Source: a bacterium
GTDB lineage: Bacteria; RBG-13-61-14; DATKZS01
Direction: 5' to 3'
DNA: 64,000 nucleotides
Assembly: GCA_963674965.2 (NCBI GenBank)
Contig: CAXXFL010000005.1
Coordinates: forward strand, 765,150 to 829,149
Position numbers and translations under genes: made by a program. Of the stretch, positions 14,806-57,828 are shown piece after piece (position 1 is the first letter of the stretch; each line of letters opens with the position of its first letter). The notes below the pieces were generated by a model. The model saw nothing but the letters and a program-made list of their open reading frames with translations, was not told where the DNA came from and made no database searches.

Positions 14806-15088
14806 TATTTATATATAAATAGCTCCTTGTCCTTCGCGGGACAATTATGTCCCTGCAAAAGTAAACCGTTAAGGCTGGACGCCTTCAAGACAAGTCAATG
14901 TGCCTTCCCGAACCTGGAGAAAAATTACAACATATTGAATGATAAATCAATGGAATGGAAAAGAGATGAATAAAGTCATGAAATAGAAGGGTGGAATCTT
15001 CAGCGGATTTTTTTTTAATCTTAATCCGGCAAAGTTATCGTGATTTCCCCATGGAAAACCGGGCCCATTAGTACATTTCCCTGGCAGG

Positions 15089-39446: not shown

Positions 39447-39986
39447 ATGTATAGAGAGATGGATGAAGACAGGAAGAAGGCAGGGATTGTTGGGGAGACG
39501 GAGGGAGCCCGTAGGGCGACCGGAGTCTCCCCAACCGGGACGGCCGAGCCGGAGGACACTCCGGCCAAGCGGCCCGAGCGGGGAGGGGCGCCGATCATTC
39601 TTCCCGACCCGGAGGTCCCGGAAAAGCCCGCCCGGCGGCGCTTCACCGCGGCTTACAAGCTCGCAATCCTCGGGAAGGCCGACGCCTGCTCGGGGCATGG
39701 CGAGGTCGGCGCCCTGCTGCGCCGGGAGGGCCTTTATTCGTCGCACCTGACGGCCTGGCGCAAGCAGCGGGACGAGGGGGCCTTGAAAGCGCTTTCGCCC
39801 GTAAAGCGGGGCCGCAAGCCCAAGGCCAAAAACCCGCTGGCCGATGAAGTGGCCCGCCTCGAGCGCGAGAACCGGAAGCTCCAAAAGCGGCTCGAACAGG
39901 CCGAGATGATAATCGACTTCCAAAAAAAAGTTGCCGATCTGCTGGGGATACCCCTGGCCAAGCCGCCCGGCGAAGAGAGCGAATGA
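39447..39986 (+). CDS. IS3-family transposase OrfA (HTH + leucine zipper)
   Basis: 'RRRFTAAYKLAILGKADAC...GALLRREGLYSSHLTAWRKQ' and the coiled 'LARLERENRKLQKRLEQAEMIIDFQKK'. Confidence 0.85.
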   Translation: MYREMDEDRKKAGIVGETEGARRATGVSPTGTAEPEDTPAKRPERGGAPIILPDPEVPEKPARRRFTAAYKLAILGKADACSGHGEVGALLRREGLYSSHLTAWRKQRDEGALKALSPVKRGRKPKAKNPLADEVARLERENRKLQKRLEQAEMIIDFQKKVADLLGIPLAKPPGEESE

Positions 39987-41418: not shown

Positions 41419-42627
41419 TTACTCGGTCCCACCATGATTTTTGATGATTTGCGCAATTTCTTTATGGCCTTTTTCAAGCGCGGCCATATAAGGGGTTTTC
41501 CCATTACTGCACTTTGCATTTACGTCAGCCCCATTTTCGATTAGTAGTTCGACCATGCCTCTTTTGCCTTCCAAGGCCGCAATGTACAAAGGAGTCTCGC
41601 CTGATATAGTCCCCTTCGCATTGATTGTCGCGCCGTTTTGGATCAGGACCTTGGCGACTCTGACGTGATCAAATGCGCTGGCTATATGGAGAGGCGTCCA
41701 ATTATTTTCCTCCACAATGTCAACATTTACTCTTTTGGACAATAATAGCTCAGCTACTTCCACCGCATCCTTTCTTGCGGCCAAGTGTAAGGGACTTAAG
41801 TTTGCATTTTCTTCTGCGAGGTTAGGGTCCGCGCCCTTGGCAATCAGGTCCAAGGCCAAATCTGTCTGTCCCATTATAATTGACTTGTGCAGGGCCGTTT
41901 GTCCATCATTCGATTTGGCATCCAGGTCTATGCCTTTAGAGATAAGGATACGCGCAACATCCACTTTCTCCTGGGCGACCGCGAGTAATAGGGGAGTATA
42001 TCCGGCGTCGGTTCGAGCCCCCAAGTTTGCGCCTTTTTCGACCAGCAATTCTACGATCTTTTTTCGTCCCTGGAAGCTTGCTATGTGAAGGGCGGTCATG
42101 TCGTGTTCGGATTTAACATCAAGCTTGGCTCCTCTTTCCACTAGCAATCTCGCAACATCGTAATTGCCCATATTGGCGGCATGGTGCAGAGCCGTCATGC
42201 TTTGATTGTCCTGTACGTCGATCTCAGCTCCAGCGTTAAGTAACTGTTCGCAAGCCTCTCTCTGTCCTTTGTGTGCCGCCATCAACAGAGGCGTAAATCC
42301 AACCTTATCCGTGGCTTCAATATCCGCTCCATTAGCCAAGAGCAAGGTTATCATCTCATTATTTCCCAAGTGAGCGGCAAAGTGAAGAGGCGTATGATTT
42401 TTATATCTCTCTCTGGAGTTGACCTTTTTAGGCTTCTTTTCGAGTGTCTTCCTGACCTCGGATATATCACCATTTGCCACTGCCTGATGAATCTTTCCGC
42501 CCCATACAGTCTCAGGACATAAAAGAAAGAAAACCACCATAACTAGAAGTGGTTTTATAACCCCTTTTTGGCAACCGGAATTATGCGGCATCCCGCCTTC
42601 AATATAATTTTTACCTGATCGATCCAT
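41419..42627 (-). CDS. Exported ankyrin-repeat protein (about 10-11 repeats), AT-rich gene
   Basis: Hydrophobic N-terminus 'IKPLLVMVVFFLLCPETVWG', then tandem 'TPLH.AA..G....LL..GA' units. An alternative start at 42591 is possible. Confidence 0.85.
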   Translation of the reverse strand: MDRSGKNYIEGGMPHNSGCQKGVIKPLLVMVVFFLLCPETVWGGKIHQAVANGDISEVRKTLEKKPKKVNSRERYKNHTPLHFAAHLGNNEMITLLLANGADIEATDKVGFTPLLMAAHKGQREACEQLLNAGAEIDVQDNQSMTALHHAANMGNYDVARLLVERGAKLDVKSEHDMTALHIASFQGRKKIVELLVEKGANLGARTDAGYTPLLLAVAQEKVDVARILISKGIDLDAKSNDGQTALHKSIIMGQTDLALDLIAKGADPNLAEENANLSPLHLAARKDAVEVAELLLSKRVNVDIVEENNWTPLHIASAFDHVRVAKVLIQNGATINAKGTISGETPLYIAALEGKRGMVELLIENGADVNAKCSNGKTPYMAALEKGHKEIAQIIKNHGGTE

Positions 42628-43025: not shown

Positions 43026-44885
43026 TTATTTCATGGCTGTGGTATTGGTTACCTTCGGCTCGTGGCAGAAGGCGCAGTTGCCGATGCAGTCGGCCTCGGC
43101 GTTGCATCCCATGGCGTCTCCGTTCATGCGGTGACAGGTCAGGCACAGGCCGTGCATGGCGTGCTTGTAACCGGGCGCCCACCTGGTGACGCCCTTGCCA
43201 TAGAGCTTCTCGGCCGTCATGGGATACTGGCCGTCCTTGTCGTGGCACTCTACGCATCCCTTGGCCGTTGCCTCGGACTTTTCCTTGTACGACTCGTGGC
43301 ACTTGTCGCAGGAGTCGTTATTTCCCATCCGCTCCTTGTGTTTGTCGTGGTCGAAGATATCCGTGTCTACCGCCATGTCGGCGTGGCAGAGGTGGCAGGA
43401 GGTCGCATGGTCGTCGGGTCTTTCGAGGTGATGGCATTTCACGCAGGAGTCCTCGCCGCCCATCAGCTCCTGGTGGACGTCGTGGGGAAAGTTCACGTAC
43501 TCCGCGGAAAGGTTGCCGTCGATCTTCAGCACGGCCCTGGTCTCGTCTACTCCCTTCGCCTTCTCGACCGGCTGGGGAGTGGGCTCGAACTTGCTCGTGC
43601 CCTTGCCCAGGAAGGCCAGATAGGCCAAGGGTATGGTGATGACCACGATGAGCGACACCTTGAGGCCGTCCTTGAACTTGATCATGGAGAAGGCTTCCCG
43701 CAGCGTGAACTGGGGGGCCATGTCGTGATGGACTCCCTCGGCCTCGGGCACGTGGCAGGCCTCGGGGGCCTCGAGGATATAGAACCTCTCGAGGAGGAAA
43801 AAGAACAACAGGGCCGCCGCCGCGGGAACGCCAAGACAAACGACCATCTCGGCCAGGGAGGGAACGTAAACCCTCTCGGCGAAGCGGAAGTATCCCACGA
43901 AGCCCACGTCGAGACGGTGCATGACCAGCCCGATAAAGGCGGGCACGCTGAAGGCGTACAGGCCGGGCACGGTCTTTCTCCATTTGCCGCTTAGTCCGAT
44001 GATGACCGGTATTATGGCCTGGAGTGTAATTTCGATGAGGAATAGTTTTCCTTCCCAGCCGGCGTCCGAGCCGAACACCCAGTTCCACTTGCCCTCGGCC
44101 GTAAGCACGATGAGGCGGATGGCCAGGAAGATGGCCAGCAGGACCGCGGAAATCCTCGCCACGCCGGAGAGGACCTCGAGGTCGGGCTTTCTTCTATACA
44201 GCCACGAGACTATGAGCATGATGAGCACGATGGTGGCCATGCCCGCTCCCATGGCGGAGATGAAGAACTCGATCGGTATCCAGAAGGTGTGCCACAGGGG
44301 GTGGAGCCTGGTATAGGACAGCATGAAAAGGGAGCCCAGCGAGCTGTGGTGCATGGTCGAGAGGGTCACGCCCAGGGCGATGATGGGCAGGGCCATCTCG
44401 TGCAGGAAGTGGGTCAGCCGGGGAAAGGGAAAGCGCTCGAGGATAACGGGCACCATCTCGTAGGCGGTGATCATCCAGTAAACGGACACGCACCAGAAGA
44501 CCTCGAAGAGGAAGGAGTGTGGGTTCCAGATGAGGAACGGGTGCCATCCGCGCCATGGGAGACCGATGTCGAAAACGAGAGCCGTAAGTGACGCCCCGTA
44601 TCCGAGGAAGCCGATGAGCACGGCTATTCTTCCGATGGACCTGTATTTATCGGCGTACCAGATGTTAATGATAAAAGCTACCACGAATCCGGAGGTGGCG
44701 AGAGCGGCGCCGGCGACCATGTTGAAAATCTTCCACATGCCCCATGGCAGTCCGTCGGACATGTAGGACGCGGCGCCGAGTCCGAAGGCGAACCTTCCGA
44801 CCACGGCCACCAGGGCGGCGAAGGACATGACCCAGAGTATTTCTTTTATCCGCTTGAGGGCGGTGGAGTCGGACTTAATCATCAC
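43026..44885 (-). CDS. NrfD/PsrC/HmcC-type quinone-interacting membrane subunit fused to a C-terminal hexahaem cytochrome c domain
   Basis: About 10 TM segments with NrfD-like composition, one further TM, then six CxxCH motifs (CVKCH, CHLCH, CDKCH, CVECH, CLTCH, CAFCH). Confidence 0.85.
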   Translation of the reverse strand: MMIKSDSTALKRIKEILWVMSFAALVAVVGRFAFGLGAASYMSDGLPWGMWKIFNMVAGAALATSGFVVAFIINIWYADKYRSIGRIAVLIGFLGYGASLTALVFDIGLPWRGWHPFLIWNPHSFLFEVFWCVSVYWMITAYEMVPVILERFPFPRLTHFLHEMALPIIALGVTLSTMHHSSLGSLFMLSYTRLHPLWHTFWIPIEFFISAMGAGMATIVLIMLIVSWLYRRKPDLEVLSGVARISAVLLAIFLAIRLIVLTAEGKWNWVFGSDAGWEGKLFLIEITLQAIIPVIIGLSGKWRKTVPGLYAFSVPAFIGLVMHRLDVGFVGYFRFAERVYVPSLAEMVVCLGVPAAAALLFFFLLERFYILEAPEACHVPEAEGVHHDMAPQFTLREAFSMIKFKDGLKVSLIVVITIPLAYLAFLGKGTSKFEPTPQPVEKAKGVDETRAVLKIDGNLSAEYVNFPHDVHQELMGGEDSCVKCHHLERPDDHATSCHLCHADMAVDTDIFDHDKHKERMGNNDSCDKCHESYKEKSEATAKGCVECHDKDGQYPMTAEKLYGKGVTRWAPGYKHAMHGLCLTCHRMNGDAMGCNAEADCIGNCAFCHEPKVTNTTAMK

Positions 44886-45808
44886 TCGCCCTCCTTCCCC
44901 GAGTCCGGGCCCGGCCCGTCGTCATGGCATACCTCGTCGATAAATGCGGTCTGGGCGCCCTCGGGTCCGGCGGCCCCATGTTCTCCGTCGCCTCCGCTCA
45001 TAAGGTGGGAGCGTCTTTTTAAAAACCACATGCTCATGATGCCGCTAAAGAAGATAATAAACTGGAAAGGCGTCCACCAAACCCACGGCTCCACCTGGTG
45101 CGGTATGGACTGGGTGGACAGTTTCCCGGCGGCCATTTTTTTAAGCTTGGCCGGATCGGGTATTTTAAGGGCGTCGCCGAGGGGCACGTCCGAGATGTAC
45201 ATTACGGATGTCCCGCCGAACTCGCTCTCTCCCCAGATATGGTCGATGTACTTGCCGGGGTCCTTCTTGATCCTGTCCCTGGCCTCCTTGATGAGGTCGT
45301 CGCGGTCTCCGAAGATGGTGGCGCCCGTCGGGCAGGCCGCCACGCAGGAGGGGCGGTTGTCCCGCTCGCTGGCCCGGCACTCCTCGTTCATCTTGCACTT
45401 GACCACGTAGGGCACGGGCTTGTCCCACTCGTAGCGGGGGACCATGAAGGGACACGCCAGCATGCAGTAGCGGCACCCGATGCACTTGTCGGCGTCGTAA
45501 ACGACCGGCCCGTCCTCGCGCTTGTCGAACGCTCCGACCAGGCAGGCGGCCTTGCAGGCGGGATCGATGCAATGCATGCACTGCCGGCGCACGTTCCTTA
45601 TTTCCCCGGCGCTTTTGCCGGCTATCTTGACGATCGAGGTGAGCCTCCTGCCGCTCAGTCCGTCCTTCGCCTTGTAATGGGCGGGGACGTCCCTGGGCAG
45701 CTTGTTAGCCTGAACGCACGCCTCGACGCATCTCTCACATCCAATGCACTTGGTCACGTCGGTGAGGATGCCCTTCATTTTTCCGTTGCCGGAATGGCCC
45801 GAGCTCAT
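44882..45808 (-). CDS. 4x[4Fe-4S] ferredoxin-type subunit (HmcB/NrfC/HybA-like) with a C-terminal TM anchor
   Basis: 'CIGCERCVEAC', 'CMHCIDPACKAAC', 'CIGCRYCMLACP', 'CVAACPTGA' cluster motifs. TM 'WWTPFQFIIFFSGIMSMWFL'. Confidence 0.85.
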   Translation of the reverse strand: MSSGHSGNGKMKGILTDVTKCIGCERCVEACVQANKLPRDVPAHYKAKDGLSGRRLTSIVKIAGKSAGEIRNVRRQCMHCIDPACKAACLVGAFDKREDGPVVYDADKCIGCRYCMLACPFMVPRYEWDKPVPYVVKCKMNEECRASERDNRPSCVAACPTGATIFGDRDDLIKEARDRIKKDPGKYIDHIWGESEFGGTSVMYISDVPLGDALKIPDPAKLKKMAAGKLSTQSIPHQVEPWVWWTPFQFIIFFSGIMSMWFLKRRSHLMSGGDGEHGAAGPEGAQTAFIDEVCHDDGPGPDSGKEGE

Positions 45809-45855: not shown

Positions 45856-47373
45856 TTATCGTTTGACGTGGCAATCGTCGCAATCGGTCGGACCGGCCAG
45901 CCTCTCGTGACAGACGATGCACGAGTCGTGCACCACGTCGCCCAGGCTGGGTATGCCCGTCCTCCATTCCTCGACCGGGTTCGTTTCCTTTTCCGATACG
46001 TGGCACTCGCCGCACTTGAGGGGAACGTCGGTCCCCTCGGGGCAGTCGAGGCCGCCGCATTTAAGGACCCGTTTGCCGTCCTTTTTCCAGGTATTGTGAT
46101 GGCACTCCCGGCAGGAGAAGGCCATGTCCTGGGCGTGGAACCGGTGCGACCAGTTGGCCTCGCCCTTGGAGGTCTGGTGCATGAACTGGCCAAAGCTCCT
46201 GTCCGGGGCGTGACACCCCTCGCACTCGGTGGGACCGTCTTTTTCCTTCTCGTGGCAGCCGATGCATCCGGTGGCCTCTCCGCCCTGGTTCCAGTGCATG
46301 GCGTCGGCCAGGGACGGCACGTCCTCGAACTGAAGATCGTCCCGCCCGTGACAGGCGCGGCAGGCCAGGTAAGGCTCGTTCTCCACGCCGCCGTGCTTGT
46401 GGTGGCAGACATTGCAGTCGCGCTCGGAGGGCGCGGCGTGACGCTCGTGGCTCCAGACCACGGTCCCGGCCGTTCCGCCGGGGAGCATGGACGGGTTCGA
46501 GCGGTGGCACTCTCCGCAGGTTATGGGCATGCCCTTGCCCGCGTCGGGATGATCGGCGTGGTGGCAATCGAGGCAACGCTCGTGCAGGGCCTCCTCGACG
46601 CTGGGCGCGCCCTCCTTGACGGCCATGCCGGTATGGCAGTCCACGCACCTTTCGGCGCCCAGCTCGGGGTTGTACTCGGTATGACAGGTGAAGCAACGCT
46701 TGTGCGCCAGTTCCTCGTGGTCCTCGATGCCCGTGCGCATGGAAAGGGACATTACCTCGGCCGGCTGGTGGCAGGAGTCGCAGGCCCGGTACTCGCTCTC
46801 GAGCACGGGCTTTTCCTCGGTCCCCTTGTCCTTGTGGTGGCAGTACTCGCAGTCCAGCTCCATGTAGCGGGAGTGCTCGCGGTGGTCCCACTCGACCTTG
46901 CCCATACGGCCGGTGAAGCGCTGCATATGGCAGTCGCGGCAACCCACGGGTCCCTGGTTCTTGACCACGTGGCAGCCCATGCACTTCGAGTGATAGGCGG
47001 TCATCGAGTCGCTCGCCGCGGGTCCCACGCCCTCCTCTTTTTTCATCATTTCCTTGAGGCGGACGTCGGCCAGCACCACGGAGTCGGCGCTGCTTTTCAG
47101 ATGGTGACAGTCCTTGCACGGCTTGGGCGTGGTGGCCCCGGCTTTTTCCGCCGCGTCCATGGCGGACTTGTGGTGGCAGTCGGTGCACTTGACGTCCTTC
47201 ATCCGGGCGTGAAGCTCATGATTCCAGATCACGTCGCCGATCCTGGCCGGCAGGGTATGGTCCGGCTCGCCGCTGGGGCGAAGGAGCATGCCTCCCGCGC
47301 CGGTCCCGATGAGCACCAATATGGCGGCCAACAGATACTCGACTTTGATTTGTTTACCTTTCACTGCTATCAT
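45856..47373 (-). CDS. High-molecular-weight multihaem cytochrome c (HmcA-like), 18 CxxCH motifs
   Basis: N-terminal signal/anchor, then 18 CxxCH motifs counted by eye, arranged in c3-like spacing with many extra His residues. Confidence 0.9.
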   Translation of the reverse strand: MIAVKGKQIKVEYLLAAILVLIGTGAGGMLLRPSGEPDHTLPARIGDVIWNHELHARMKDVKCTDCHHKSAMDAAEKAGATTPKPCKDCHHLKSSADSVVLADVRLKEMMKKEEGVGPAASDSMTAYHSKCMGCHVVKNQGPVGCRDCHMQRFTGRMGKVEWDHREHSRYMELDCEYCHHKDKGTEEKPVLESEYRACDSCHQPAEVMSLSMRTGIEDHEELAHKRCFTCHTEYNPELGAERCVDCHTGMAVKEGAPSVEEALHERCLDCHHADHPDAGKGMPITCGECHRSNPSMLPGGTAGTVVWSHERHAAPSERDCNVCHHKHGGVENEPYLACRACHGRDDLQFEDVPSLADAMHWNQGGEATGCIGCHEKEKDGPTECEGCHAPDRSFGQFMHQTSKGEANWSHRFHAQDMAFSCRECHHNTWKKDGKRVLKCGGLDCPEGTDVPLKCGECHVSEKETNPVEEWRTGIPSLGDVVHDSCIVCHERLAGPTDCDDCHVKR

Positions 47374-47475: not shown

Positions 47476-47952
47476 ATGTCCCGTTTCGGCATAATCATAA
47501 AAACTTCCGACGGCCGCGCCGTCGTCCGGACCTCGCGCCGGGGCGTTTGCGAGTCCTGTTCCGAGCGCGAGACCTGCACCTTCGAGACGGCGCTCGGTAA
47601 GGACGTCCCCGAGGAGGTCGAGGTTTTAAACCCGATCAACGCCTCGACCGGAGACGCGGTCGAGTTCGACCTGCCCGGCCATTCCGAGCTTAAGGTCTCC
47701 CTCCTCATCTGGGCCGTGCCCCTCGCCGGGCTTATTCTCGGCGGAGCGGCCGGCGCGCTGGCGGGCGACGCGCTGGGCGTCGACCCCAACCTGACCACCC
47801 TGGCCGGAGTGGCCGTCGGCCTCGCCGCCGGAATGCTTCCGGTCATCCTCATGGACCGCGCGGCCGCGAGCGACCCCAAATATACTCCCCGCGTAATCCG
47901 GGTCGTGCCCGTCTCCACCTGCCCGACCTCGGTCAGGGAAGACGCCCCCTGA
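47476..47952 (+). CDS. RseC/MucC-family (SoxR-reducing-system-type) membrane protein
   Basis: Only the last 158 codons of track ORF 45868..47952 are plausible: 'GIIIKTSDGRAVVRTSRRGVCESCSERETC' N-domain, then two Gly/Ala-rich TM helices. Confidence 0.7.
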   Translation: MSRFGIIIKTSDGRAVVRTSRRGVCESCSERETCTFETALGKDVPEEVEVLNPINASTGDAVEFDLPGHSELKVSLLIWAVPLAGLILGGAAGALAGDALGVDPNLTTLAGVAVGLAAGMLPVILMDRAAASDPKYTPRVIRVVPVSTCPTSVREDAP

Positions 47953-50172
47953 TCAGGGCGAGTTACGCAAAAGTTCCTCCAGCTTCTCGAGGCCCGACTT
48001 GTCGGTACCCTCGAGTATCTTTTTATGCTTGTCCTTCTCGGCGTCCGAGTAAAAACAGATCGTGCCGCAGCGCATGCACCGGTTGGCCTCCGCCTCGATA
48101 AGGTCCTGGGTAAGGTTCAGGTCGACCTCGTCGAAGCTCTTGATCCTCTCCTTGGCCGGAAGCTCGGGCTGAGGCTGCTTCGGGAGCTTGGCCACGCCGA
48201 ACACCGGCTCCTCGCCCGAGTCGGGGTTTCGCGTGGGCTTGTAGGACACGCCCTTGGGAAAGCGCATGTCCTTGCCCTCGAGATAAAGATGGATGCTCCG
48301 CGCCGCCTGCCTGCCCGTGCCGATGGCCTCGACCACCAGGCCCGGACCGGTCCAGATGTCGCCCGCCGTAAAGATGTGGGGCACGGTCGATTGAAGCGTT
48401 TCCTCGTCGGCCACGATGGTGGCCCACCTGGTCAGTTCGAGGCCCCGCTCCTTCATGTCATCGCTCAGCCAGTCGGTGCGGGGCCGCTGGCCGATGGCGG
48501 CGATGACCACGTCCACGTCCATCAGGGTCTCGGACCCCTCCTTGGGAACGGGCCGGCGACGTCCCGAGGCGTCGGGCTCTCCCAGTTCCATCTGGATGTA
48601 CTCGATCTGTTTTAACTTGCCGTCCTCGCCGGCGATCAGCCTGGTGGGGGCCGCCAGGAAGTGGTACTGCACTCCCTCGTGCTCGGCCGCCACTATCTCG
48701 ACGTCGTTGGCGGGCATTTCCTTCCTGGTGCGGCGGTAAAGGAGGATGACCTCGGCCGCGTTCATGCGCAGGGAGCTGCGGCAGGCGTCCATGGCGGTGT
48801 TGCCGCCGCCCACCACCACCACGCGCTTGCCCGCCAGGTCCACCTTGATCCCCAGCTCTCTTTTCTGGAGGAACTCGGTGCCCTTCCAGACGCCCTCCAT
48901 GTCCTCGCCCTCGACGCGGAGGGACGAGTTGTCCCACGCTCCCATGGCCAGGAGGATGGCGTCGAACTCCTTCTCGAGCTCGGCTATCTTGATGTCCGTT
49001 CCCAGGTTGACGTTGTATTTCGCCTCGACGCCCAGGTCGAGAATCTCCTGGATTTCCCAGTCGAGTATCTTCTTGGGCAGCCGGTACTCGGGGATGCCGT
49101 AGCGGAGCATGCCGCCGTAGGCCGGCTTGTTGTCGAAGATGGTGACGGCGTGACCCATCCTGCGCAGGAAGTAAGCCGCCGTCAGGCCGCAGGGACCGCC
49201 GCCGATGACGGCCACCTTCTTGCCCGTGTCGGGCAGGCACGAGGGCTTCTTGCGCTCGGGCAGGGCCCTTTCCCAGTCGGCCACGAAACGCTTGATATAG
49301 TTATGATGGACCGGCTCGTCCTCGATGGCGACCCTCCTGCATCCGGCCTCGCAGGGGGCCGGGCACACGCGGCCGCACACCAGGGGCAGGGGGTTCCTTT
49401 CCTTGATGATATTAACCGCCTCCTCGTATTTGCCCTCGGCCGCGAACTCGACGTAGGCCGGGATGTCGATCTGGGCCGGGCAGAGCTGCTTGCAGGGGGC
49501 CAGGCACTCGTCGCTCGTATTGAAATGGAGGAGTCTCTGTGAGGTCGAGTACAGATGGATGACGTCCATGGGACAAATCTTTTCGCAGGTCCCGCAGCCC
49601 ACGCACTTGGAGGCGTCCACCTCGGGCGTTCCCTCGGGCCCCATCTTCAGGGCGCCGAAGGGGCAGGCCTCGACGCAGGAGCCAAGGCCCAGGCAGCCGT
49701 GCTTGCACCAGATGTCCCCGCCCCATACCTCGGCCATGGCCCGGCAGTCCATTACGCCGTCGTAGTAATATTTCTTGACCGCCCGATAGCCGCCGTTGCA
49801 GTAGTGGTCGGCGATTTTAGGCTCGACGAACCCGACCTCGCCGCCCATGACCTTTGCCACCTTGGCCGCCACGTCGGGGCCGCCGGCAATGCAGGCGTTC
49901 ACGGGCGCGTCACCGGCCACGATGGCCTCGGCGCAGGCCGAGCACCCGGTGAAGCCGCAGCCGCCGCAGTTGGCGCCCGGCAGGGAGTCCTCGACCTGGA
50001 CCACGCGGGGGTCGACCTCGACGTGGAATATTCGGGAGGCCGCCGCCAGGACTATGGCCGCCACGCCGCCCACCGCCAGCATCAGCAGCATGGGCAAAAG
50101 GGTCAGCATGGTCGGGTTGCCAGAATAACTCGCGTAAATGTCCTGCATTATTTTCGCGATAGAGTCCATCAC
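47953..50172 (-). CDS. rnfB: RnfB fused to a GltD/NfnB-like NAD(P)H-dependent FAD/FeS oxidoreductase module
   Basis: N-terminal TM plus 'NCGGCGFTGCSACAEAI' and two ferredoxin CxxCxxCxxxCP motifs. Then 'CGRVCPAPCEAGC', 'VAVIGGGPCGLTAAYFL', 'VVVVGGGNTAMD', 'IFTAGD'. Confidence 0.85.
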   Translation of the reverse strand: MMDSIAKIMQDIYASYSGNPTMLTLLPMLLMLAVGGVAAIVLAAASRIFHVEVDPRVVQVEDSLPGANCGGCGFTGCSACAEAIVAGDAPVNACIAGGPDVAAKVAKVMGGEVGFVEPKIADHYCNGGYRAVKKYYYDGVMDCRAMAEVWGGDIWCKHGCLGLGSCVEACPFGALKMGPEGTPEVDASKCVGCGTCEKICPMDVIHLYSTSQRLLHFNTSDECLAPCKQLCPAQIDIPAYVEFAAEGKYEEAVNIIKERNPLPLVCGRVCPAPCEAGCRRVAIEDEPVHHNYIKRFVADWERALPERKKPSCLPDTGKKVAVIGGGPCGLTAAYFLRRMGHAVTIFDNKPAYGGMLRYGIPEYRLPKKILDWEIQEILDLGVEAKYNVNLGTDIKIAELEKEFDAILLAMGAWDNSSLRVEGEDMEGVWKGTEFLQKRELGIKVDLAGKRVVVVGGGNTAMDACRSSLRMNAAEVILLYRRTRKEMPANDVEIVAAEHEGVQYHFLAAPTRLIAGEDGKLKQIEYIQMELGEPDASGRRRPVPKEGSETLMDVDVVIAAIGQRPRTDWLSDDMKERGLELTRWATIVADEETLQSTVPHIFTAGDIWTGPGLVVEAIGTGRQAARSIHLYLEGKDMRFPKGVSYKPTRNPDSGEEPVFGVAKLPKQPQPELPAKERIKSFDEVDLNLTQDLIEAEANRCMRCGTICFYSDAEKDKHKKILEGTDKSGLEKLEELLRNSP

Positions 50173-50223: not shown

Positions 50224-50835
50224 TCAGATCATGCCCTTGAAGGCGAAAAAGCTAAGGGCCAGAAGGCCGGCCGTGACAAGGCCGATCCCCGTTCCATCCA
50301 ACACCTTGGGTATCCGGGATATCTCGAACTTCTCCCGGATGCCGGCGAAAAGAATCAGCGCCAGCCCGAAGCCGCAGGCCGCGGCGGCGGAGTAAACCAG
50401 GGCCACGATCAGCTCGTGGCCGGCCCAGACCTTGGTGTACTCCTTGAAATTTTTTATGTTCAGGAGCGTGACGCCCATGACGGCGCAGTTGGTCGTTATC
50501 AGGGGCAGGAAGATACCGAGCGACTTGTAAAGGGCCGGTATGGATTTTCTCAGGAACATCTCGACGAACTGGACCAGGGTGGCTATAACCAGGATGAAGG
50601 CCAGTGTCTGAATATACTCGAGCTTAAGGGGCTTAAGGAACATGAAGTAGGCCAGCCAGGTGAAAAGGGCGGCCAGGGTCAGGACGAAGACGACGGCCCC
50701 CGCCATTCCCACGGCCGTGTCCATTTTCTTGGACACGCCCAAAAAGGGGCAGTTGCCGAGGAACTGGGCCAGCAGTATGTTGTTGATAAAGATGGCCGCC
50801 ACAACCAGGGCGATCATATCCGTGAAGACTTCCAT
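50224..50835 (-). CDS. rnfA: Rnf complex subunit A
   Basis: 'NNILLAQFLGNCPFLGVS' and a 6-TM layout. Confidence 0.9.
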   Translation of the reverse strand: MEVFTDMIALVVAAIFINNILLAQFLGNCPFLGVSKKMDTAVGMAGAVVFVLTLAALFTWLAYFMFLKPLKLEYIQTLAFILVIATLVQFVEMFLRKSIPALYKSLGIFLPLITTNCAVMGVTLLNIKNFKEYTKVWAGHELIVALVYSAAAACGFGLALILFAGIREKFEISRIPKVLDGTGIGLVTAGLLALSFFAFKGMI

Positions 50836-50847: not shown

Positions 50848-51456
50848 TTACTTGTTGCCCAGCTTGCCGAGCACGTTCATCACGCCGAGCATAAGGCCAA
50901 GGGCCATGAAGGCGCCGGGGGCCTGCTGGAGGATGGCGAAGGGCTCGAAATTAAGGCCCATGGCCTCGAAAAGCTTCCACCCGAAAATCTCGCCGGCGCC
51001 GAAAATTTCCCTGAGTCCGCCCAGCACGGTAAGGGACATGGTAAAGCCGAGTCCCATTCCCAGCCCGTCGGCCATGGAGGCGATGACTCCGTTCTTTTTG
51101 GCGAAGGCCTCTGCCCTTCCCAGTATGATGCAGTTGACCACGATCAGGGGAATGAATATTCCCAGGCTCTCGTAAAGAGGATACACGAAGGCCTTGGTGA
51201 ACATCTCGACGCAGACCACGAATGTGGCCACGATCACGATGTAACACGCGACCCTGACCTCGTCGGGTATGACCTTTCTGAGGGCGGAGATGAAGACGTT
51301 GGAGCAGACCAGGACGAAGGTCGCGGCCAGCCCCATGCCTATTCCGTTTTCCATGGACGTGGTTACGGCCAGGGTCGGGCATAGTCCCAGCACGAACCGG
51401 AAAGGAGGAATCTCCTTCCATAGTCCCTTGGTAAATTCCTGAGTGATGGTACTCAT
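50848..51456 (-). CDS. rnfE: Rnf complex subunit E
   Basis: 'FRFVLGLCPTLAVTTS' and 'IIVNCIILGRAEAFA'. Confidence 0.9.
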   Translation of the reverse strand: MSTITQEFTKGLWKEIPPFRFVLGLCPTLAVTTSMENGIGMGLAATFVLVCSNVFISALRKVIPDEVRVACYIVIVATFVVCVEMFTKAFVYPLYESLGIFIPLIVVNCIILGRAEAFAKKNGVIASMADGLGMGLGFTMSLTVLGGLREIFGAGEIFGWKLFEAMGLNFEPFAILQQAPGAFMALGLMLGVMNVLGKLGNK

Positions 51457-51474: not shown

Positions 51475-52095
51475 TTATTTAACGGCCTCTTCAAGCTCGT
51501 CCTTGTGTTGGTCATAGGTTGCCTTGGCTTTTCTGATGGCGTCGGCCACGGCCCCGCTGGACTTGGTAGCCCCGCTCACCTGGTCGATGATCCCGCCGTT
51601 TTTCTTGATCTTGAAGACGGAGTCCTTGCTCATGCCGATGAACTGATGCTGGAAGGCGGGCTCAGTAACCCTGGCGCCCAGGCCCGGGGTCTCAGAGTGA
51701 GTGGTGATACCGATGCCGTCCAGGTTTCCCGACTGGATATTGAAGCCGACCATGACGCCGATGTTGCCGCCGTAGCCGCCCTCCCCCTCGCGCTCGATCA
51801 CGATGGTGTTTGGCTTGCCGTCTTTTTTCGTCACGAACATAAGAAGTTCCTGTTCCTCTCCGACGTCAATCATTTTATAGCTGGAGAGAAGCTCTTGCGT
51901 GACCTTTTCCTCGTCCGCCTCGCTCATCTTGCCGGAAACTCCCTCGATGATGCTTATCACGGCCGGGACCTTTTTAAACTTGAGCACGTTCTGCTCGCCC
52001 TTTTCCTTGGTGAGCCTGTTAAGTCCGCCGAGGGCGATTCCGCTGATGAGGCTTATTCCCACCAGGACGACGATCATTTTGATCATGTTACCCAT
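51475..52095 (-). CDS. rnfG: Rnf complex subunit G (FMN_bind domain)
   Basis: N-terminal TM anchor. 'HSETPGLG' and the covalent-FMN site context 'DQVSGATKSS'. Confidence 0.85.
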   Translation of the reverse strand: MGNMIKMIVVLVGISLISGIALGGLNRLTKEKGEQNVLKFKKVPAVISIIEGVSGKMSEADEEKVTQELLSSYKMIDVGEEQELLMFVTKKDGKPNTIVIEREGEGGYGGNIGVMVGFNIQSGNLDGIGITTHSETPGLGARVTEPAFQHQFIGMSKDSVFKIKKNGGIIDQVSGATKSSGAVADAIRKAKATYDQHKDELEEAVK

Positions 52096-53074
52096 TTTGG
52101 ATCACCACCTCCGTAACCTTGGGCCTGATCCTGTCAAGCAAGGGGTTAAGGACGTTGGACAAAAGCACGGCGAAGGGTATGGCGTCGGGCCATTGTCCAT
52201 AGGTCCGAATCAGCATTATAAGGAGTCCCATGCATATCCCGAAGAGCCAGGCGGGCAGATTGTTGGTGGGGGAGCTGGTCGAGTCCGTTGCCAGGAAGAA
52301 GGCCGCAATAATGACGTGTCCGGAAATAAATTGAGCGGCCATGATCTCGGCCAGAGACCCGCCGCCCAGTTTTTCCGGCGCCACCGACCCGAAGATCAGC
52401 GAGCCCAGGATTACGCCGCCGATCACGGCCGCTGGTATCTGCCACCTAATATGGCCGAGGGCGCAAAGTGCGATCCCGCCGGCGGCGGTGGTAAGGATCA
52501 CGGCGAAGTGGGCCGAGGCGATGCTTTTCATTCCCACCGGATAGATATGGTGGGGCCATGAAAGAAGGAGTATAAGCCATCCCACCATGGCCGGATGGAA
52601 CGGATAACTTCCGATGCCGCCGTAAAGCTGCTTGCCGATGAGTATGGCCAGGAACACGCCGATGACCAGGGTCCACCAGGGCACCGAGACGGGCATGAAC
52701 ATGGCCACTAAAAGTCCCATCAGTGCCCCGTGTCCGTTCATGGCGTGATAGGGCTGGCGGAAGAGCACCTGGATCAGGTACTCGGCCGCGACCCCGACGC
52801 CCATGCCCATGGCCAGGACCCCGCCGGCCCCGATCGAGGCGAGGAGGCCGGGACTGATCCCGAACTCCCGAACGATGGACCCGAGAAGCCACTCGAGCCC
52901 CGTGGCCCGGCCGAGGACGTGCATTTCATCGGTCATGAACCCGTGGGCTATGACCCCGATGGCGGCCGCCGGAAGAAGCGCCAGAATGAAGGCGTAGTTC
53001 ATCTGGGTGACGCTCGTCTTCGAGCGCCAGTGCGGCCCGGGACCCACGGTGAACAAAGTCTCTCTAGACTCCAT
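52088..53074 (-). CDS. rnfD: Rnf complex subunit D
   Basis: Polytopic NqrB/RnfD-like protein. 'AAFFLATDSTSSPT' matches the flavinylation-site region. Confidence 0.9.
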   Translation of the reverse strand: MESRETLFTVGPGPHWRSKTSVTQMNYAFILALLPAAAIGVIAHGFMTDEMHVLGRATGLEWLLGSIVREFGISPGLLASIGAGGVLAMGMGVGVAAEYLIQVLFRQPYHAMNGHGALMGLLVAMFMPVSVPWWTLVIGVFLAILIGKQLYGGIGSYPFHPAMVGWLILLLSWPHHIYPVGMKSIASAHFAVILTTAAGGIALCALGHIRWQIPAAVIGGVILGSLIFGSVAPEKLGGGSLAEIMAAQFISGHVIIAAFFLATDSTSSPTNNLPAWLFGICMGLLIMLIRTYGQWPDAIPFAVLLSNVLNPLLDRIRPKVTEVVIQNG

Positions 53075-53104: not shown

Positions 53105-54475
53105 TCATCCGGCCGAGGCCTCGGAGACGGCCGGCTCGTTTTGTTCCTTGCAAGCCTCTTCCGCCTCTTCCCGCGCTTTCTTATCCTTGGCCTTTTGTTC
53201 GGCCTCGTTTCTAATCCTTGTTACTTCCCGCTTGGCGAGCCGGATCATCTGCACCAGCGGCCTCCTGGCCGTGCAGACCATGGCGCAAAGACCGCATTCG
53301 ACGCAGTTCATGACTCCCAGGTCGTCGGCGGGCTCGAAGATCGAGAACTCCGAGTATCTTCCCAACAGGCTGGGCTGGAGGTTGACCGGGCACACCGACA
53401 CGCAGGCGCCGCAGCTTACGCAGGGCTCGTCGCTCCAGGGTAATATGTTTTCCCGGGGAATGAGCATGACCGCGTCCAGCCCGGCGTCCACCGGGGCCTC
53501 GAGCGAGTACTGGGCGATGCCCCGGAGGGGGCCGCCGGCCAATACCTTGTCGCCGTCCCTGGGCTTGAGTCCCATGAAGGCGAACAGGTCCTTTAGCTTG
53601 GCGCCGATGGGAGCGCGAAGGTTGGCCTTGGCCTCCCCTTTTGGCCCGATAAAGGTGACGACCTTTTTATCCTGGACCTTGCCGTCCCGGATGGCGTCCA
53701 GGGCCGCCAGGGCCGTTCCCGCCGTGATAACGCGGACGCCCTTGCCGCCGCCGGCCCTAAGGGCCACCATGGGCTTCAAGGTCATGGGGTACTCGGGGGG
53801 CACGGAAAGGACCTTGACGCCCGTGCCGCCGGCCGACTTGCCCGTCTGGCCCGCGCTTTTGTCATGGGCCGCCACGTAAACGTCCTTGGCCCCGGCCATC
53901 TTGCCCAGGACCTTGGCCGCGATGAAAACGTCCTCGGACCTCCAGCGGAAAACCTCGGAGGTCGAGAAGACCTCGGGCTCGCGGTCAGAGGCAAGCACCA
54001 CCAGGGTCTCGACCTCGACGTCCGCCTCGGGACCAATGATCTCGCCCAGGGGCCTGGGCGTATAGGACTCGGTCAGTATGCCGGCCTCGGCCACCCTGGC
54101 CCAAAGTTCCCGGGCCGAGGCGGTTTCCGGGTCCATGGGCTTCCAGGCGACGGGTGAAGAATCGGGATCGGGATCGACGGCCACCGAGTGGCCCACGTAA
54201 TGGTTCCTGGCGTCGGGACCGGATATCACGCCCACTACCTTGCCCTTTACCGGGCAGACCACGGCCTTTTTAACGCCGTCGCTTCCCAGGAACTGGCCGG
54301 GCTTGACCTGGTCCCCCTCCTTGACCAGGGCCTCGTAGGGGACCCCGGTCCCGCTGAAAAGCGGGAAGACGAGGCTCGAGGACGCGGCCGCGTCCTTGAT
54401 GGCCAAGTGCTGGGATTTAAGTGGGAACTTCGGCCGCCTAAACCCGAAGAGCCTATCCGTAATTTCGTCAAACAT
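53105..54475 (-). CDS. rnfC: Rnf complex subunit C, atypical (flavin/NADH glycine motif not found)
   Basis: RnfC N-terminal barrel ('VKEGDQVKPGQFLG'), 'LAGGPLRG', and two 4Fe-4S motifs 'CVSCGACVSVCP' and 'CVECGLCAMVCT'. It sits first in the rnfCDGEAB order. Confidence 0.8.
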   Translation of the reverse strand: MFDEITDRLFGFRRPKFPLKSQHLAIKDAAASSSLVFPLFSGTGVPYEALVKEGDQVKPGQFLGSDGVKKAVVCPVKGKVVGVISGPDARNHYVGHSVAVDPDPDSSPVAWKPMDPETASARELWARVAEAGILTESYTPRPLGEIIGPEADVEVETLVVLASDREPEVFSTSEVFRWRSEDVFIAAKVLGKMAGAKDVYVAAHDKSAGQTGKSAGGTGVKVLSVPPEYPMTLKPMVALRAGGGKGVRVITAGTALAALDAIRDGKVQDKKVVTFIGPKGEAKANLRAPIGAKLKDLFAFMGLKPRDGDKVLAGGPLRGIAQYSLEAPVDAGLDAVMLIPRENILPWSDEPCVSCGACVSVCPVNLQPSLLGRYSEFSIFEPADDLGVMNCVECGLCAMVCTARRPLVQMIRLAKREVTRIRNEAEQKAKDKKAREEAEEACKEQNEPAVSEASAG

Positions 54476-54842: not shown

Positions 54843-56372
54843 ATGGCGAGAGTGGTAATAGGTCTGGACGTTTCCGGCGCGGGCTGGAAGTACGCAGTGG
54901 CGGCGGGACCGTCAAAAGACAGGATCAGGGTCATCGAGTATGGCCGTTTCGATCCTCCACCCGTGGACTTCGACTACCTTTTCTCCGACGAGATGGACGA
55001 GATCGATCTCGAGGAAAAGGTCTCCGAGTGGGCCGAGGCCTTTTACGCCAAACTCGAGCCCTATCTTGGCTCGGACCCGGACGTGGTGGTGGGCATTCCC
55101 CGCGAGTTGGTGACCATCCGCTCTCTTGACGTTCCCTTTACCAAGGACTCCCGCATCGCCCAGGTCCTGCCTTACGAGGCCGAGGCCAGCCTGGCCTTGG
55201 ACGCGGACGAGTTGGTCTTCGATTTCTACGCCCTCGGGTCCCGCGAGGAGGAAACCAGGGTGCTGGCCGCGGCGGTCGAGCGCGAGAAGATACACTCCCT
55301 GCTGACCCTTTTCAAGCTGGTGGGAATCGACCCCATGGTCGTGGCGCCCACTCCCCTTTCCCTCCATCACCTGGGTCGCGTGACCGGACCGGCCGCTAAC
55401 GGGGTCCCCTCTCGGACCGGCTACCTTCAAATCGAGAACGGCGGCGTCTTCTTAACGGTAACCGAGCAAGATAAAAGCGTTTTCACCGCCTCGTTCCACG
55501 CGAGCGAAGACGAGGGACCTTCAACCGGCGCCGGGACAAGCCTTCTCCAGAACATTGGACGGGCCATTCATTATCTCGAGGGTTTCAAAACGGTCGGCGC
55601 CGGATGCCCTCCTCCCTTGAAGAAACTTTTCGTGACCGGAGACCCCGCCAAGGTGGGGCCAACCGTTTCCGAGTTGGAACAACGGCTGGGCCTCGAGGTC
55701 ATGCCCTTTAAAATTGCGCCCGCCGCCGTGACGGAGGACACCCAGCTCAATCCGGATCGGGACCTGGCCATGGCCACGTCACTGGCCCTTGCTCTCCAGG
55801 GGATGTCCACCGGCAAAAAGGCGGGGCTTAATTTCAGAAAGGGAGAGTTCTCCTTCCGCCACGAGCGCAAGGCATTGATAAAAAAGGCTATATTCCCAGC
55901 CACCTTGCTGGTGACCCTTGTTTTATCCATTGTCTTCAGCGCCTCGGTTACGGGTTCGTCCTCAGACGAGAACTCGGCCGCTATCGTGGACCTTATGAAA
56001 AAGGAGTTCGCCGCCTATTTTCCCGGCGAGCCCATTGTCGATCCCACCGTCCAGATCAAAAACAAGCTGGACGAGACCAAGGCCAAGAAAATCAAGTACG
56101 AGGACCTTTCCAACCCCTCGGCTCTTACCGTCATGGCCGCCTTGTCCAGCGCCGTTCCCGACGACCTGGTTGTAACCATAACCAGTTTCGATTTCAAGGG
56201 CGACAAGCTGGTCCTGAAAGGAGAATGCGAGGAACTGGACATACCCAACAAGGTGGCCAAGGAACTCGAGAAGGTACCCATATTTAAAAAGGTGGACCTT
56301 GGCAATGTAACTTCCGGTAAAGAAAAGAAATTCACCATAGATATCGACCTGAGGGAGAAGGGACGGCCATGA
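54843..56372 (+). CDS. GspL-like type II secretion / PilM-PilN-like assembly protein
   Basis: Actin-like N-domain 'VVIGLDVSG...VVVGIPRELVTIRSLDVPF...VLPYEAEASLALDADELVFDF', a single TM (~aa 345-365), and a periplasmic ferredoxin-like C-domain. Confidence 0.55.
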   Translation: MARVVIGLDVSGAGWKYAVAAGPSKDRIRVIEYGRFDPPPVDFDYLFSDEMDEIDLEEKVSEWAEAFYAKLEPYLGSDPDVVVGIPRELVTIRSLDVPFTKDSRIAQVLPYEAEASLALDADELVFDFYALGSREEETRVLAAAVEREKIHSLLTLFKLVGIDPMVVAPTPLSLHHLGRVTGPAANGVPSRTGYLQIENGGVFLTVTEQDKSVFTASFHASEDEGPSTGAGTSLLQNIGRAIHYLEGFKTVGAGCPPPLKKLFVTGDPAKVGPTVSELEQRLGLEVMPFKIAPAAVTEDTQLNPDRDLAMATSLALALQGMSTGKKAGLNFRKGEFSFRHERKALIKKAIFPATLLVTLVLSIVFSASVTGSSSDENSAAIVDLMKKEFAAYFPGEPIVDPTVQIKNKLDETKAKKIKYEDLSNPSALTVMAALSSAVPDDLVVTITSFDFKGDKLVLKGECEELDIPNKVAKELEKVPIFKKVDLGNVTSGKEKKFTIDIDLREKGRP

Positions 56373-56899
56373 GCCTGGAAGCACGGGAAAAGAAATTCCT
56401 CGGCATCGGGGCTATCGCTTTTGTCTTGATAGTTGCCATCTGGCTTGTCACGGGCGGTGATTCCGGGACCAGGGGCGGAGATTCGAAAAGGGTCGCTCAA
56501 AAACAGGAGACCTTTCATAAGGACCTGAAGGATTACCTCGAGATCAAGGACTCGGTCGAAAAGATCGATCAGAGGCTGTCCAAAACTCCGGAGAATTTCG
56601 ATCTGGCAGGAGAGCTCAACGAGATATTCGACTCCCTGGGAATCAAAAACGCCATCAGGAGCCTCAACCCCACGGACGCCGGCGCCAACGACTTTTACTC
56701 GGCCTCCTACGTGGACATTAAAATAGACGAGATATCCCTTGACGACCTGGTCAGCCTGCTGGTTAAGATCGAGTCGTCCGACGCCTTTATCAAGGTGGAC
56801 AAACTCACGGTCAGAAGAAGGTTCAAGGACAACGCCCTGGATATAAATATCAGGGTCGCCGCCTACTCGGCCAAGCTCGAAGAGGCCCCTCCCAAATGA
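56369..56899 (+). CDS. GspM/PilO-like bitopic protein
   Basis: 4-bp overlap with the upstream gene. N-terminal TM 'FLGIGAIAFVLIVAIWLV'. The C-domain resembles GspM. Confidence 0.45.
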   Translation: MSLEAREKKFLGIGAIAFVLIVAIWLVTGGDSGTRGGDSKRVAQKQETFHKDLKDYLEIKDSVEKIDQRLSKTPENFDLAGELNEIFDSLGIKNAIRSLNPTDAGANDFYSASYVDIKIDEISLDDLVSLLVKIESSDAFIKVDKLTVRRRFKDNALDINIRVAAYSAKLEEAPPK

Positions 56900-57828
56900 A
56901 CGGCTGGAAAAGGATAGTGCTTGGCGGCCTCGGATACCTCCTCTTCTTCGTCGTCTCCCTGGTACTCTTCACCTTCTTAACCTTCGACCCCACCATGTTC
57001 GCGCCCCGCATCGAGCGGGCGGCCAAGGACGGCGGGATAACCCTTCAGATTCAAAAGATTTCCCTCAAGGGCCTCGGGGGCCTCGAGATGCGGGGAGTTA
57101 AAGTCTCCCCCGCGGCCAAGCCTCAGGAAGGCGAAGGGGAGGCGGCCGATCCACCGACTCCCATGGTCATCGACCGGCTCATTGTAAAGCCCAAGCTCAC
57201 TACCCTGCCGGGCCTTTTAACGGCGGCCAGGGACAACAAGCCGCCCCGTATCGAGGCCGCCTTTTCCGCCCGGGTCGGGGAGGGCGAGATCGAATCGGGC
57301 TTTCTCTCCTTTTACGGGGAATCCCTTTCCGCGGAGGCCGAGGCCAAGTCTTTTCCCCTGGCTCGGGTCCCGCTCTCCGGGTTTGAAATCAAGGGCCTCA
57401 AGTTCTACGCCCCCACCTTGTCCGGCTCCATGGACGCCAAGGTGAAGCTGGAAATGGGAAACCGGAAAAACCCCGACACCTGGAACGGGGACGTCCAGCT
57501 GGACCTGAAAAATCCGGGCATAAGCGAACTGAAAAACGCGATTATCGCTTTTCCCGGACCGAAAATGCAAAGCGGAAACCTCAAGGCGAAAATCGACAGG
57601 GGGTTGGTAACGGTCAGTTCCCTTAAACTGGTGGGCGACGACATGCCCATGAACTTTACCGGGACCATCAAGTTAAACCCCAATTTCGCCGCGTCCATGT
57701 CTGAAATTAACGGGACCATCGAGTTCAGCGAGTCCTTCAAATCCAGGCTGGACCCCACCTTCGCCCAAATGCTTCCGCCCAAGAAAATCGAGTATAAAGG
57801 ACCCATCGGAAAACTGGCCGCCTGGTAA
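56896..57828 (+). CDS. GspN-like type II secretion protein
   Basis: 4-bp overlap with the upstream gene. N-terminal TM 'IVLGGLGYLLFFVVSLVLFTFL'. The beta-rich periplasmic domain is typical of GspN in deltaproteobacteria-like T2SS loci. Confidence 0.45.
   Translation: MNGWKRIVLGGLGYLLFFVVSLVLFTFLTFDPTMFAPRIERAAKDGGITLQIQKISLKGLGGLEMRGVKVSPAAKPQEGEGEAADPPTPMVIDRLIVKPKLTTLPGLLTAARDNKPPRIEAAFSARVGEGEIESGFLSFYGESLSAEAEAKSFPLARVPLSGFEIKGLKFYAPTLSGSMDAKVKLEMGNRKNPDTWNGDVQLDLKNPGISELKNAIIAFPGPKMQSGNLKAKIDRGLVTVSSLKLVGDDMPMNFTGTIKLNPNFAASMSEINGTIEFSESFKSRLDPTFAQMLPPKKIEYKGPIGKLAAW

Follow-up and report, generated by a model that had tools for sequence, protein, structure and literature searches.

We examined an rnf operon in a 64,000-nucleotide stretch of bacterial DNA (contig CAXXFL010000005.1, positions 765,150 to 829,149 of the forward strand; hereafter the window). 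Open reading frame (ORF) and Pfam assignments give the gene order rnfCDGEAB on the minus strand, with rnfC as the first gene. The RnfC subunit (53105..54475, minus strand, 456 amino acids) has lost the flavin/NADH-binding glycine motif of canonical RnfC and has kept both of its [4Fe-4S] motifs, and the RnfB subunit (47953..50172, minus strand, 739 amino acids) is fused to a GltD/NfnB-type module. The operon is a divergent sub-clade member of the Rnf2 or Desulfobacula toluolica Tol2-type, whose published defining features it shares. This large-RnfB type is described in a 2016 paper on Desulfococcus multivorans (PMC5109826, citing Woehlbrand et al. 2013), which gives its RnfB as about 700 residues long with NAD+-binding sites, and a 2025 paper (PMC11887813) names it Rnf2. 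The core of our finding, a flavin-less RnfC together with a large RnfB and a moved nucleotide site, is not new, having been in the literature since 2013. The rewiring described here goes beyond the published account, as the flavin site of RnfD has been lost too and the nucleotide module appears to be of the NADPH kind.

Loss of the FMN/NADH site from RnfC

The initial annotation, working by eye, had placed AEAGILTESYTPRPLGEII and VLASDREPEVF of RnfC opposite the canonical GxGGAGFPT and ECEPY stretches, and had concluded that the flavin/NADH motif appeared to be missing. Both the register and the conclusion are borne out. In HMMER alignments to the solved RnfC chains 7zc6_C, 9eri_C and 8ahx_C, 'GMGGATFPT' lies opposite 'TESYTPRPL', which forms residues 135–143 within AEAGILTESYTPRPLGEII (54047..54073, minus strand) and marks the former loop for the phosphate of flavin mononucleotide (FMN; canonical G-x-G-G-A-x-F-P-T). 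In the same alignments 'AAECEPYL' of the solved chains lies opposite 'ASDREPEV', so that the 'DREP' of VLASDREPEVF (residues 164–167; 53975..53986, minus strand) takes the place of canonical 'ECEP', and no intact FMN/NADH site appeared. The protein reaches 16.5 bits with the Pfam Complex1_51K model, whose cut-off is 31.2, and has no SLBB match at E ≤ 0.01. The full-length NCBIfam models also fall below their cut-offs, with 188.2 bits against 245.95 for rnfC (TIGR01945) and 179 against 345 for RsxC (NF003454).

The other parts of the protein that had been reported as retained were all found. RnfC_N, the N-terminal barrel, passes its Pfam threshold (34.7 bits), as do Fer4 models; 'LAGGPLRG' occupies residues 312–319, the first CxxCxxCxxxCP motif, CVSCGACVSVCP, residues 352–363 (53387..53422, minus strand), and the second CxxCxxCxxxC motif, CVECGLCAMVC, residues 391–401 (53273..53305, minus strand). 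The protein thus starts with the RnfC_N barrel and runs through a degenerate domain of the Complex1_51K kind and a region resembling SLBB to the pair of [4Fe-4S] motifs. We then counted how many of the positions that are invariant across 19 canonical RnfC proteins are kept in the window. The Fe-S region keeps 10 of 10, SLBB 8 of 9 and RnfC_N 7 of 9, whereas the Complex1_51K domain keeps 8 of 23; it is thus this FMN/NADH domain specifically that has eroded. G136, G138, G139, F142, K147, N162 and E165 (numbering of the canonical RnfC ORF of locus L033) are all replaced.

The same substitutions extend to relatives. We aligned the 19 canonical sequences with 53 RnfC sequences of the type that accompanies a GltD-fused RnfB (fused-type RnfC). 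Three glycines, the phenylalanine and the proline of the FMN loop, the lysine that follows, and the asparagine and glutamate residues of N-G-x-E-C-E-P are invariant in the canonical proteins, and these residues are replaced or deleted in the fused type. The loop stretch, with its three glycines and phenylalanine invariant in 19/19 canonical sequences, is gapped in about 30 of the 53. At the ECEP position Glu has become Asp in 52/53, and Cys has become Arg or another residue. The site has been lost in two ways, by substitution of the loop in the window's sub-clade and by its deletion in most Desulfobacterota sequences. The substitutes are themselves conserved: P140, P142, L143, D164, R165 and P167 within the window's sub-clade, with D164, R165 and P167 almost invariant inside the clade. 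All eight cluster cysteines are kept in 53/53 fused-type sequences (alignment A2). In a second alignment (A1), the second cysteine of the first CxxCxxCxxxCP motif (the column of Cys355 in the window) is serine in the relatives P0002, P0006, P0017, P0021 and P0051, which suggests a Ser-ligated or [3Fe-4S] cluster, or the onset of cluster loss.

An AlphaFold model of RnfC, built on 23 clade sequences, has a mean predicted local distance difference test score (pLDDT) of 88.3 and a predicted template modelling score (pTM) of 0.86. Compared with solved structures, it matches RnfC chains with template modelling (TM) scores of 0.77–0.83 and NqrA chains with 0.65–0.73, and in this model the RnfC fold is retained despite the motif loss. 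We also considered that a shifted alignment register, a pseudogene or faulty assembly had made an ordinary or non-functional RnfC look unusual. The low family scores are all that speaks for this, and we give it next to no credence. It is refuted by an intact ORF, by the same register in three independent alignments, by 57 protein clusters with the same domain pattern (P0002–P0058), by the confidently predicted fold, and by homologous complexes in proteomes, Rnf2 subunits being abundant and constitutive in Desulfobacteraceae (PMC5109826, PMC11887813). Because the replaced motifs are conserved in the clade and the subunits are abundant in these proteomes, the rnfC gene is not decaying.

A GltD/NfnB-type module on RnfB

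RnfB consists of two parts, as the initial annotation had recognised. Residues 25–214 hold the RnfB membrane anchor, the PF04060 cluster and a 2x[4Fe-4S] domain, and residues 213–708 hold Fer4_20, a motif for flavin adenine dinucleotide (FAD; GGGPCG, 320–329) and an NAD(P)H motif (GGGNTAMD, 451–462), followed by YRRTRKEMPA at 479–488 and a C-terminal EAxRCxxCG. Pfam matches (PF04060 and Fer4 spanning 64–207, Fer4_20 and Pyr_redox_2 spanning 223–620), NCBIfam models (RnfB and GltD matching separate halves of the 739-residue protein) and PDB alignments (RnfB chains to 25–221, NfnABC modules to 213–708) all agree on this division. Residues 25–214 align to residues 5–203 of canonical RnfB, and from these spans we conclude that the GltD module replaces the distal ferredoxin-like domains of the canonical subunit. 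The FAD and NAD(P)H glycine motifs of the module are intact.

The best solved homologues of the module are Caldicellulosiruptor NfnABC (9bov_A, 434 bits), then Thermococcus NfnABC (9n5u_A, 429 bits) and Sporomusa StnABC (8oh5_C, 378 bits). The similarity includes YRRT(R/K)EMPA, and the EAxRCxxCG segment aligns in 9bov_A and 8oh5_C, with only a weak separate stretch in 9n5u_A. The closest solved relatives, namely NfnABC, StnABC, NfnB, GltD and DPD, all bind NADP(H), and the fused module is most likely of the NADPH kind, to judge by this homology. The passages describing Rnf2 in PMC5109826 and PMC11887813 do not report an affinity to NfnABC/StnABC. The fusion is widespread, with relatives of the whole RnfB-GltD protein in more than 120 protein clusters at 55–75% identity, the module itself being 60–75% identical; nearly all show the FeS, Fer4_20, Pyr_redox_2 architecture, the exceptions being short fragments. 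Flavin-based bifurcation at the FAD of the module, as in NfnAB, was considered and rejected, as an NfnA-like high-potential partner is absent from the cluster and NfnABC/StnABC use the module as a plain NADPH site.

A protein search with the window RnfC returned the 57 clusters mentioned above at 36–56% identity; precomputed SLBB matches are found in 0/57 and a Complex1_51K match in P0003 only. Beyond a gap in score come canonical RnfCs, nearly all with Complex1_51K and most also with SLBB. The nearest relatives lie in bins labelled Phycisphaerales, Planctomycetaceae, Acidobacteriota, Sandaracinaceae, Myxococcota and SAR324, and the window's sub-clade is mostly outside Desulfobacterota. From a scan of one genome per species we then took 80 loci with 10-kb flanks, called their ORFs and compared these with the window proteins. 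RnfC lacks GGxxFP or ECEP in 74 of the loci and is canonical in 6. Among the 74, rnfB is visible after rnfA in 53, 2 have no rnfB and 19 are cut by contig ends. RnfB is GltD-fused (about 700 residues) in all 53 informative flavin-less loci and unfused (277–309 residues) in 6/6 canonical ones, and a flavin-motif-less RnfC beside an ordinary short RnfB was not found among the 80. The co-occurrence test that the initial annotation had proposed thus came out in its favour, the loci with ordinary RnfB showing no such substitutions in RnfC. Together with the intact GltD motifs, this supports its suggestion that nucleotide entry has probably moved from RnfC to RnfB.

Pfam profiles separate the two types similarly. 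Complex1_51K (E ~1e-50) and SLBB match 19/19 canonical RnfC proteins, whereas fused-type RnfC shows weak Complex1_51K remnants in 23/53 (best E 2.7e-14) and SLBB in 5/53; the second domain of NqrA in Pfam matches 14/53. Five further loci (L081–L085) agree with the pairing of fusion and motif loss. L081 and L082, which carry the closest RnfC relative, repeat the gene order of the window. L083–L085, reached independently through the RnfB-GltD relatives P0173, P0170 and P0171, form a further sub-type, with an RnfD of 282 residues and an RnfC of 411–415 residues that gives weak Fer4 matches only, RnfC_N not being detected in it. A divergent multihaem cytochrome of about 600 residues lies upstream in two of these three loci.

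In two loci, L019 (9857-15384) and L069 (9785-14453), flavin-less rnfCDGEA is followed by rseC, and rnfB of any kind is absent from the 7 kb downstream and the 10 kb upstream; an association in cis with GltD-RnfB is therefore not established as obligatory. The rnfB of L018, counted among the 53, is split between its N-terminal and GltD parts by a single in-frame TAA (14839-14841). Selenocysteine recoding was rejected for this stop, since a TAA stands where Tyr is otherwise conserved, which points to a sequencing error or nonsense mutation. Locus L056, from a Pseudomonadota bin, carries two complete large-RnfB clusters in tandem on one contig (77-6173 and 9878-16399).

The fused type forms a monophyletic group apart from the canonical proteins in a neighbour-joining tree of the 53 fused-type and 19 canonical RnfC sequences, which was built from distances and carries no support values. 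The fused-type clade includes the large-RnfB loci of Desulfobacula, Desulfobacter postgatei and other Desulfobacteraceae. Because of this monophyly, the association of fusion and motif loss is largely one evolutionary event.

The membrane core, the cytochrome module and electron flow

The remaining subunits of the published large-RnfB complex have been called 'very similar'. In the window, RnfD (52088..53074, minus strand, 328 residues; NQR2_RnfD_RnfE family) has lost its periplasmic covalent-FMN loop, of which a short stretch remains (residues 175–189; 52508-52552, minus strand), and the protein is gapped at this place when aligned with solved RnfD chains. The motif D(A/G)x(S/T)xATPL occurs in 6/6 canonical RnfD proteins and in 0/74 from flavin-less-RnfC loci. 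In the window's sub-clade the entire loop of about 45 residues is missing, whereas in the Desulfobacterota version the acceptor Thr is Ala, Tyr or Ser. The loss of this threonine is not mentioned in the passages on Rnf2 in PMC5109826 and PMC11887813. Some relatives join RnfC and RnfD in one protein of about 770 residues (P0030, P0036 and P0043; L003 9953-12280, L010 1444-3822, L013 10001-12286).

RnfG (51475..52095, minus strand, 206 residues; FMN_bind) has a perfect D-x-x-S-G-A-T flavinylation motif (DQVSGAT; SGAT at 51565-51576). RnfE (50848..51456, minus strand) and RnfA (50224..50835, minus strand), both of the Rnf-Nqr family, keep Cys26 (LCP) and Cys109 (NC), and Cys29 (NCP) and Cys117 (NC), respectively; we take these cysteines to hold the shared [2Fe-2S] cluster, as in canonical Rnf and Nqr structures. 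By these residues the membrane core is intact.

Beyond rnfB lies a convergent rseC/mucC-family gene (47476..47952, plus strand; PF04246, 79.5 bits), and past it, 580 bp from rnfB and on the same strand as it, a gene for an HmcA-like multihaem cytochrome c (45856..47373, minus strand, 505 residues, 18 CxxCH motifs). Next come genes for an HmcB/NrfC/HybA-type 4Fe-4S protein that has a membrane helix at its C-terminus (44882..45808, minus strand) and for a membrane protein of the quinone-interacting NrfD type that carries a fused cytochrome c domain with 6 haems (43026..44885, minus strand). RseC is linked to the Rsx (Rnf) system in E. coli. Among the flavin-less-type loci rseC adjoins rnf in 31/74 and a cytochrome gene is near in 41/74, each against 0/6 for canonical loci. 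The whole block, rnfCDGEAB, rseC, multihaem cytochrome, FeS protein and NrfD-cytochrome fusion, occurs in 10/10 sub-clade loci with enough flank and again in L081 and L082; the Rnf2 passages of PMC5109826 and PMC11887813 do not describe it.

The explanation we favour, by a modest preference, is that of an Rnf2-type complex that takes NAD(P)H at RnfB and passes electrons out to a periplasmic cytochrome and quinone, a rewiring that is Nqr-like in its logic. A pyridine nucleotide, most likely NADPH, would be oxidised or reduced at the FAD of RnfB instead of at RnfC, and electrons would run from the RnfB clusters through the [2Fe-2S] cluster of RnfA/E to the periplasmic FMN on RnfG. They would leave (or enter) by the periplasmic multihaem cytochrome encoded next to the operon and by the FeS/NrfD proteins that partner it, connecting to the menaquinone pool. 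Because the FMNs of RnfD and RnfC are gone and the cytochrome/quinone module is a fixed neighbour, a path from RnfG through the cytochrome and NrfCD to menaquinone seems the most economical exit. Passage through the membrane core would be coupled to Na+ or H+ translocation, for which a drop of roughly 250–300 mV (standard potentials) suffices, and the reverse reaction would make NADPH at the cost of the ion gradient. As in Nqr, the nucleotide would sit on the 'B/F' side and the flavin would be lost on the 'C/A' side, with a different and unrelated flavoprotein module.

Several points weigh against this explanation. We infer the substrate, direction and ion coupling of the complex, all three, from its genes, and the preference for NADPH over NADH rests on homology where the published descriptions say NAD+/NADH. 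The 80 loci were retrieved by patterns derived from the window's own clade, and the 53:0 versus 0:6 association is largely of single origin and does not represent many independent events. The cytochrome module of the window is a separate transcription unit, split from rnfB by the oppositely oriented rseC. Finally, the retention of all eight cluster cysteines across the fused-type RnfC proteins is hard to explain if electrons never reach RnfC, and this strict conservation keeps two other readings alive.

In one of them, the complex is still a ferredoxin:NAD(P)+ oxidoreductase with its sites swapped, the nucleotide being bound at RnfB-GltD and the exposed RnfC clusters docking ferredoxin, flavodoxin or another cytoplasmic Fe-S protein. 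The conserved cysteines would then have a use, the canonical ferredoxin dock on the distal RnfB domains has been replaced by GltD, and the conserved P140, P142, L143, D164, R165 and P167, where the FMN site used to be, could offer a new surface for docking. However, if the core has kept its coupling polarity, the exergonic passage of electrons from RnfC-docked ferredoxin to NAD(P)+ on RnfB would, on the canonical mechanism, consume the ion gradient and conserve no energy, and we disfavour the reading for this reason. Loss of the covalent FMN of RnfD, which links RnfG to RnfC, weakens a path through RnfC, and the conserved cytochrome neighbours go unexplained; on balance we regard such a swap as unlikely.

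The other reading takes RnfC to be a structural scaffold in the making, like NqrA, with electrons leaving a non-covalent RnfD flavin to menaquinone as in Na+-NQR, and with the cytochrome genes as mere neighbours. The similarity of the RnfC model to NqrA, the matches to the second NqrA domain, the serine that replaces a cluster cysteine in some clade members, and the reduction of RnfC to Fer4 matches in L083–L085 are all consistent with it. Against this, the Fe-S motifs, which NqrA does not have, are otherwise strictly conserved, the covalent FMN on which NqrB depends ahead of its riboflavin and quinone site is missing from RnfD, and the synteny with the cytochrome is kept across phyla. We consider this scaffold role quite improbable.

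Returning to the favoured NAD(P)H-to-cytochrome route, we tentatively offer a broader reading, which we hold to be possible but somewhat doubtful as a whole. The large-RnfB type would be a second, independent Nqr-like reinvention of Rnf, one that gave up both cytoplasm-side flavins (the FMN of RnfC and the covalent FMN of RnfD) and gained an NfnABC-type module, specific for NADPH, on RnfB. The product would be an ion-translocating NADPH:cytochrome c/menaquinone oxidoreductase or, in reverse, a gradient-driven producer of NADPH from periplasmic or quinol electrons. It would form a fixed ten-gene unit with the Hmc-like module in a sub-clade spanning Planctomycetota, Acidobacteriota, Myxococcota and SAR324, and the RnfC clusters would serve another cytoplasmic partner.

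The Rnf2 type is reported to belong to the core, constitutively abundant membrane complexes of Desulfobacteraceae, the dominant sulfate reducers of marine sediments (PMC11887813), and the window and its relatives indicate that it is not confined to sulfate reducers. The additional losses and the NADPH-type module sharpen a testable hypothesis for the type as a whole, and such operons should not be annotated as ferredoxin:NAD+ oxidoreductases in metabolic reconstructions from metagenomes.

Other genes surround the operon. Divergent from rnfC, a GspL/PilM-PilN-like gene and two small downstream genes occupy 54843-57828 (plus strand), and the closest related locus, L081, has the same neighbours on this side, including an AsmA-like gene. 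An integrase-core (rve) transposase gene (39983-40999, plus strand), possibly an insertion sequence, lies between the region of the Hmc-like module and upstream genes. Two ankyrin-repeat proteins are encoded at 41419-42627 and 9992-11599 (both minus strand), one with an N-terminal caspase (Peptidase_C14) domain; a CHASE2-adenylate/guanylate cyclase gene (11643-13616) adjoins the ankyrin-repeat gene at 9992-11599.

Comparison with known systems

With canonical Rnf (Acetobacterium woodii 9ERI, Clostridium tetanomorphum 7ZC6, Azotobacter vinelandii 8AHX) the window complex shares its set of six homologous subunits and their order, as well as the RnfC fold with its two [4Fe-4S] motifs, the RnfG flavinylation site and the RnfA/E cysteines. 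It lacks the FMN/NADH site of RnfC, the covalent-FMN threonine of RnfD and the distal ferredoxin domains of RnfB, and its RnfC stays under the TIGR01945 cut-off. The closest match to the nucleotide module lies outside Rnf. The NfnB-like module of NfnABC/StnABC (9BOV/9BP5 chain A, 9N5U/9N5V chain A, 8OH5 chain C) aligns end to end with RnfB 213–708 at 378–434 bits, but there it sits on a HydABC-type bifurcating core, whereas in the window it is fused to a membrane-anchored RnfB.

Na+-NQR follows a similar logic, with the nucleotide entering through a flavoprotein on the RnfB/NqrF side and an RnfC/NqrA-side subunit without FMN. However, NqrF, which combines a 2Fe-2S ferredoxin domain with an FNR-like one, bears no relation to the GltD module, Fe-S clusters are absent from NqrA whereas RnfC keeps eight cysteines, and NqrB keeps the covalent FMN that RnfD has lost. 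The NCBIfam nqrA models score 23–53 bits on RnfC against cut-offs of 321–819, and ORF and Pfam assignments reveal no NqrF-type gene in the rnf cluster. The window complex is not an Nqr.

A multihaem c-type cytochrome also accompanies the Rnf cluster of Methanosarcina acetivorans, where MmcA is thought to take electrons on the outer membrane face (bioRxiv 10.1101/2022.07.20.500911; PMC6703419). There RnfB is not fused to GltD, the donor is ferredoxin and the acceptor methanophenazine, and the window proteins score far below the Methanosarcina-type models (RnfC 143 bits against a cut-off of 650, RnfB 168 against 445). The two-subunit 'Nqr/Rnf-like' complexes (PMC11334425), proposed to carry electrons from NAD(P)H to extracytosolic acceptors, likewise pair an RnfD/NqrB-like subunit without the flavinylation threonine with a flavinylated RnfG/NqrC-like subunit. 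In these, an FNR-type NAD-binding domain (PF00175) is fused to the RnfD-like protein and two subunits make up the complex, whereas the window has six Rnf subunits.

The Rnf2/Tol2-type remains the closest known system. A 2025 review of RNF and NQR, checked for GltD, fusion and NADPH, does not mention it. Shared features are the RnfB of about 700 residues, made of an RnfB N-terminus and a pyridine-nucleotide-disulfide oxidoreductase (GltD-type) module, an RnfC without a Complex1_51K or SLBB signature, the order rnfCDGEAB with all of RnfD, RnfG, RnfE and RnfA in one cluster, a cytochrome c gene adjoining the cluster, and RnfCs that fall in one clade. PMC11887813 notes an associated cytochrome c3 gene, and its supplement proposes a route from Rnf2 through cytochrome c3 and Qrc to menaquinone for Desulfobacteraceae. 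The RnfC of the Desulfobacterota type is only 26–34% identical to that of the window. The RnfC of the window has a substituted FMN loop and has retained RnfC_N, whereas most Desulfobacterota Rnf2 sequences have the loop deleted; the periplasmic loop of its RnfD is deleted, whereas the Desulfobacterota proteins have lost only the acceptor Thr; and an 18-haem cytochrome, together with FeS and NrfD proteins, serves as the partner in place of the small cytochrome c3 encoded upstream of rnfC in Desulfobacteraceae.

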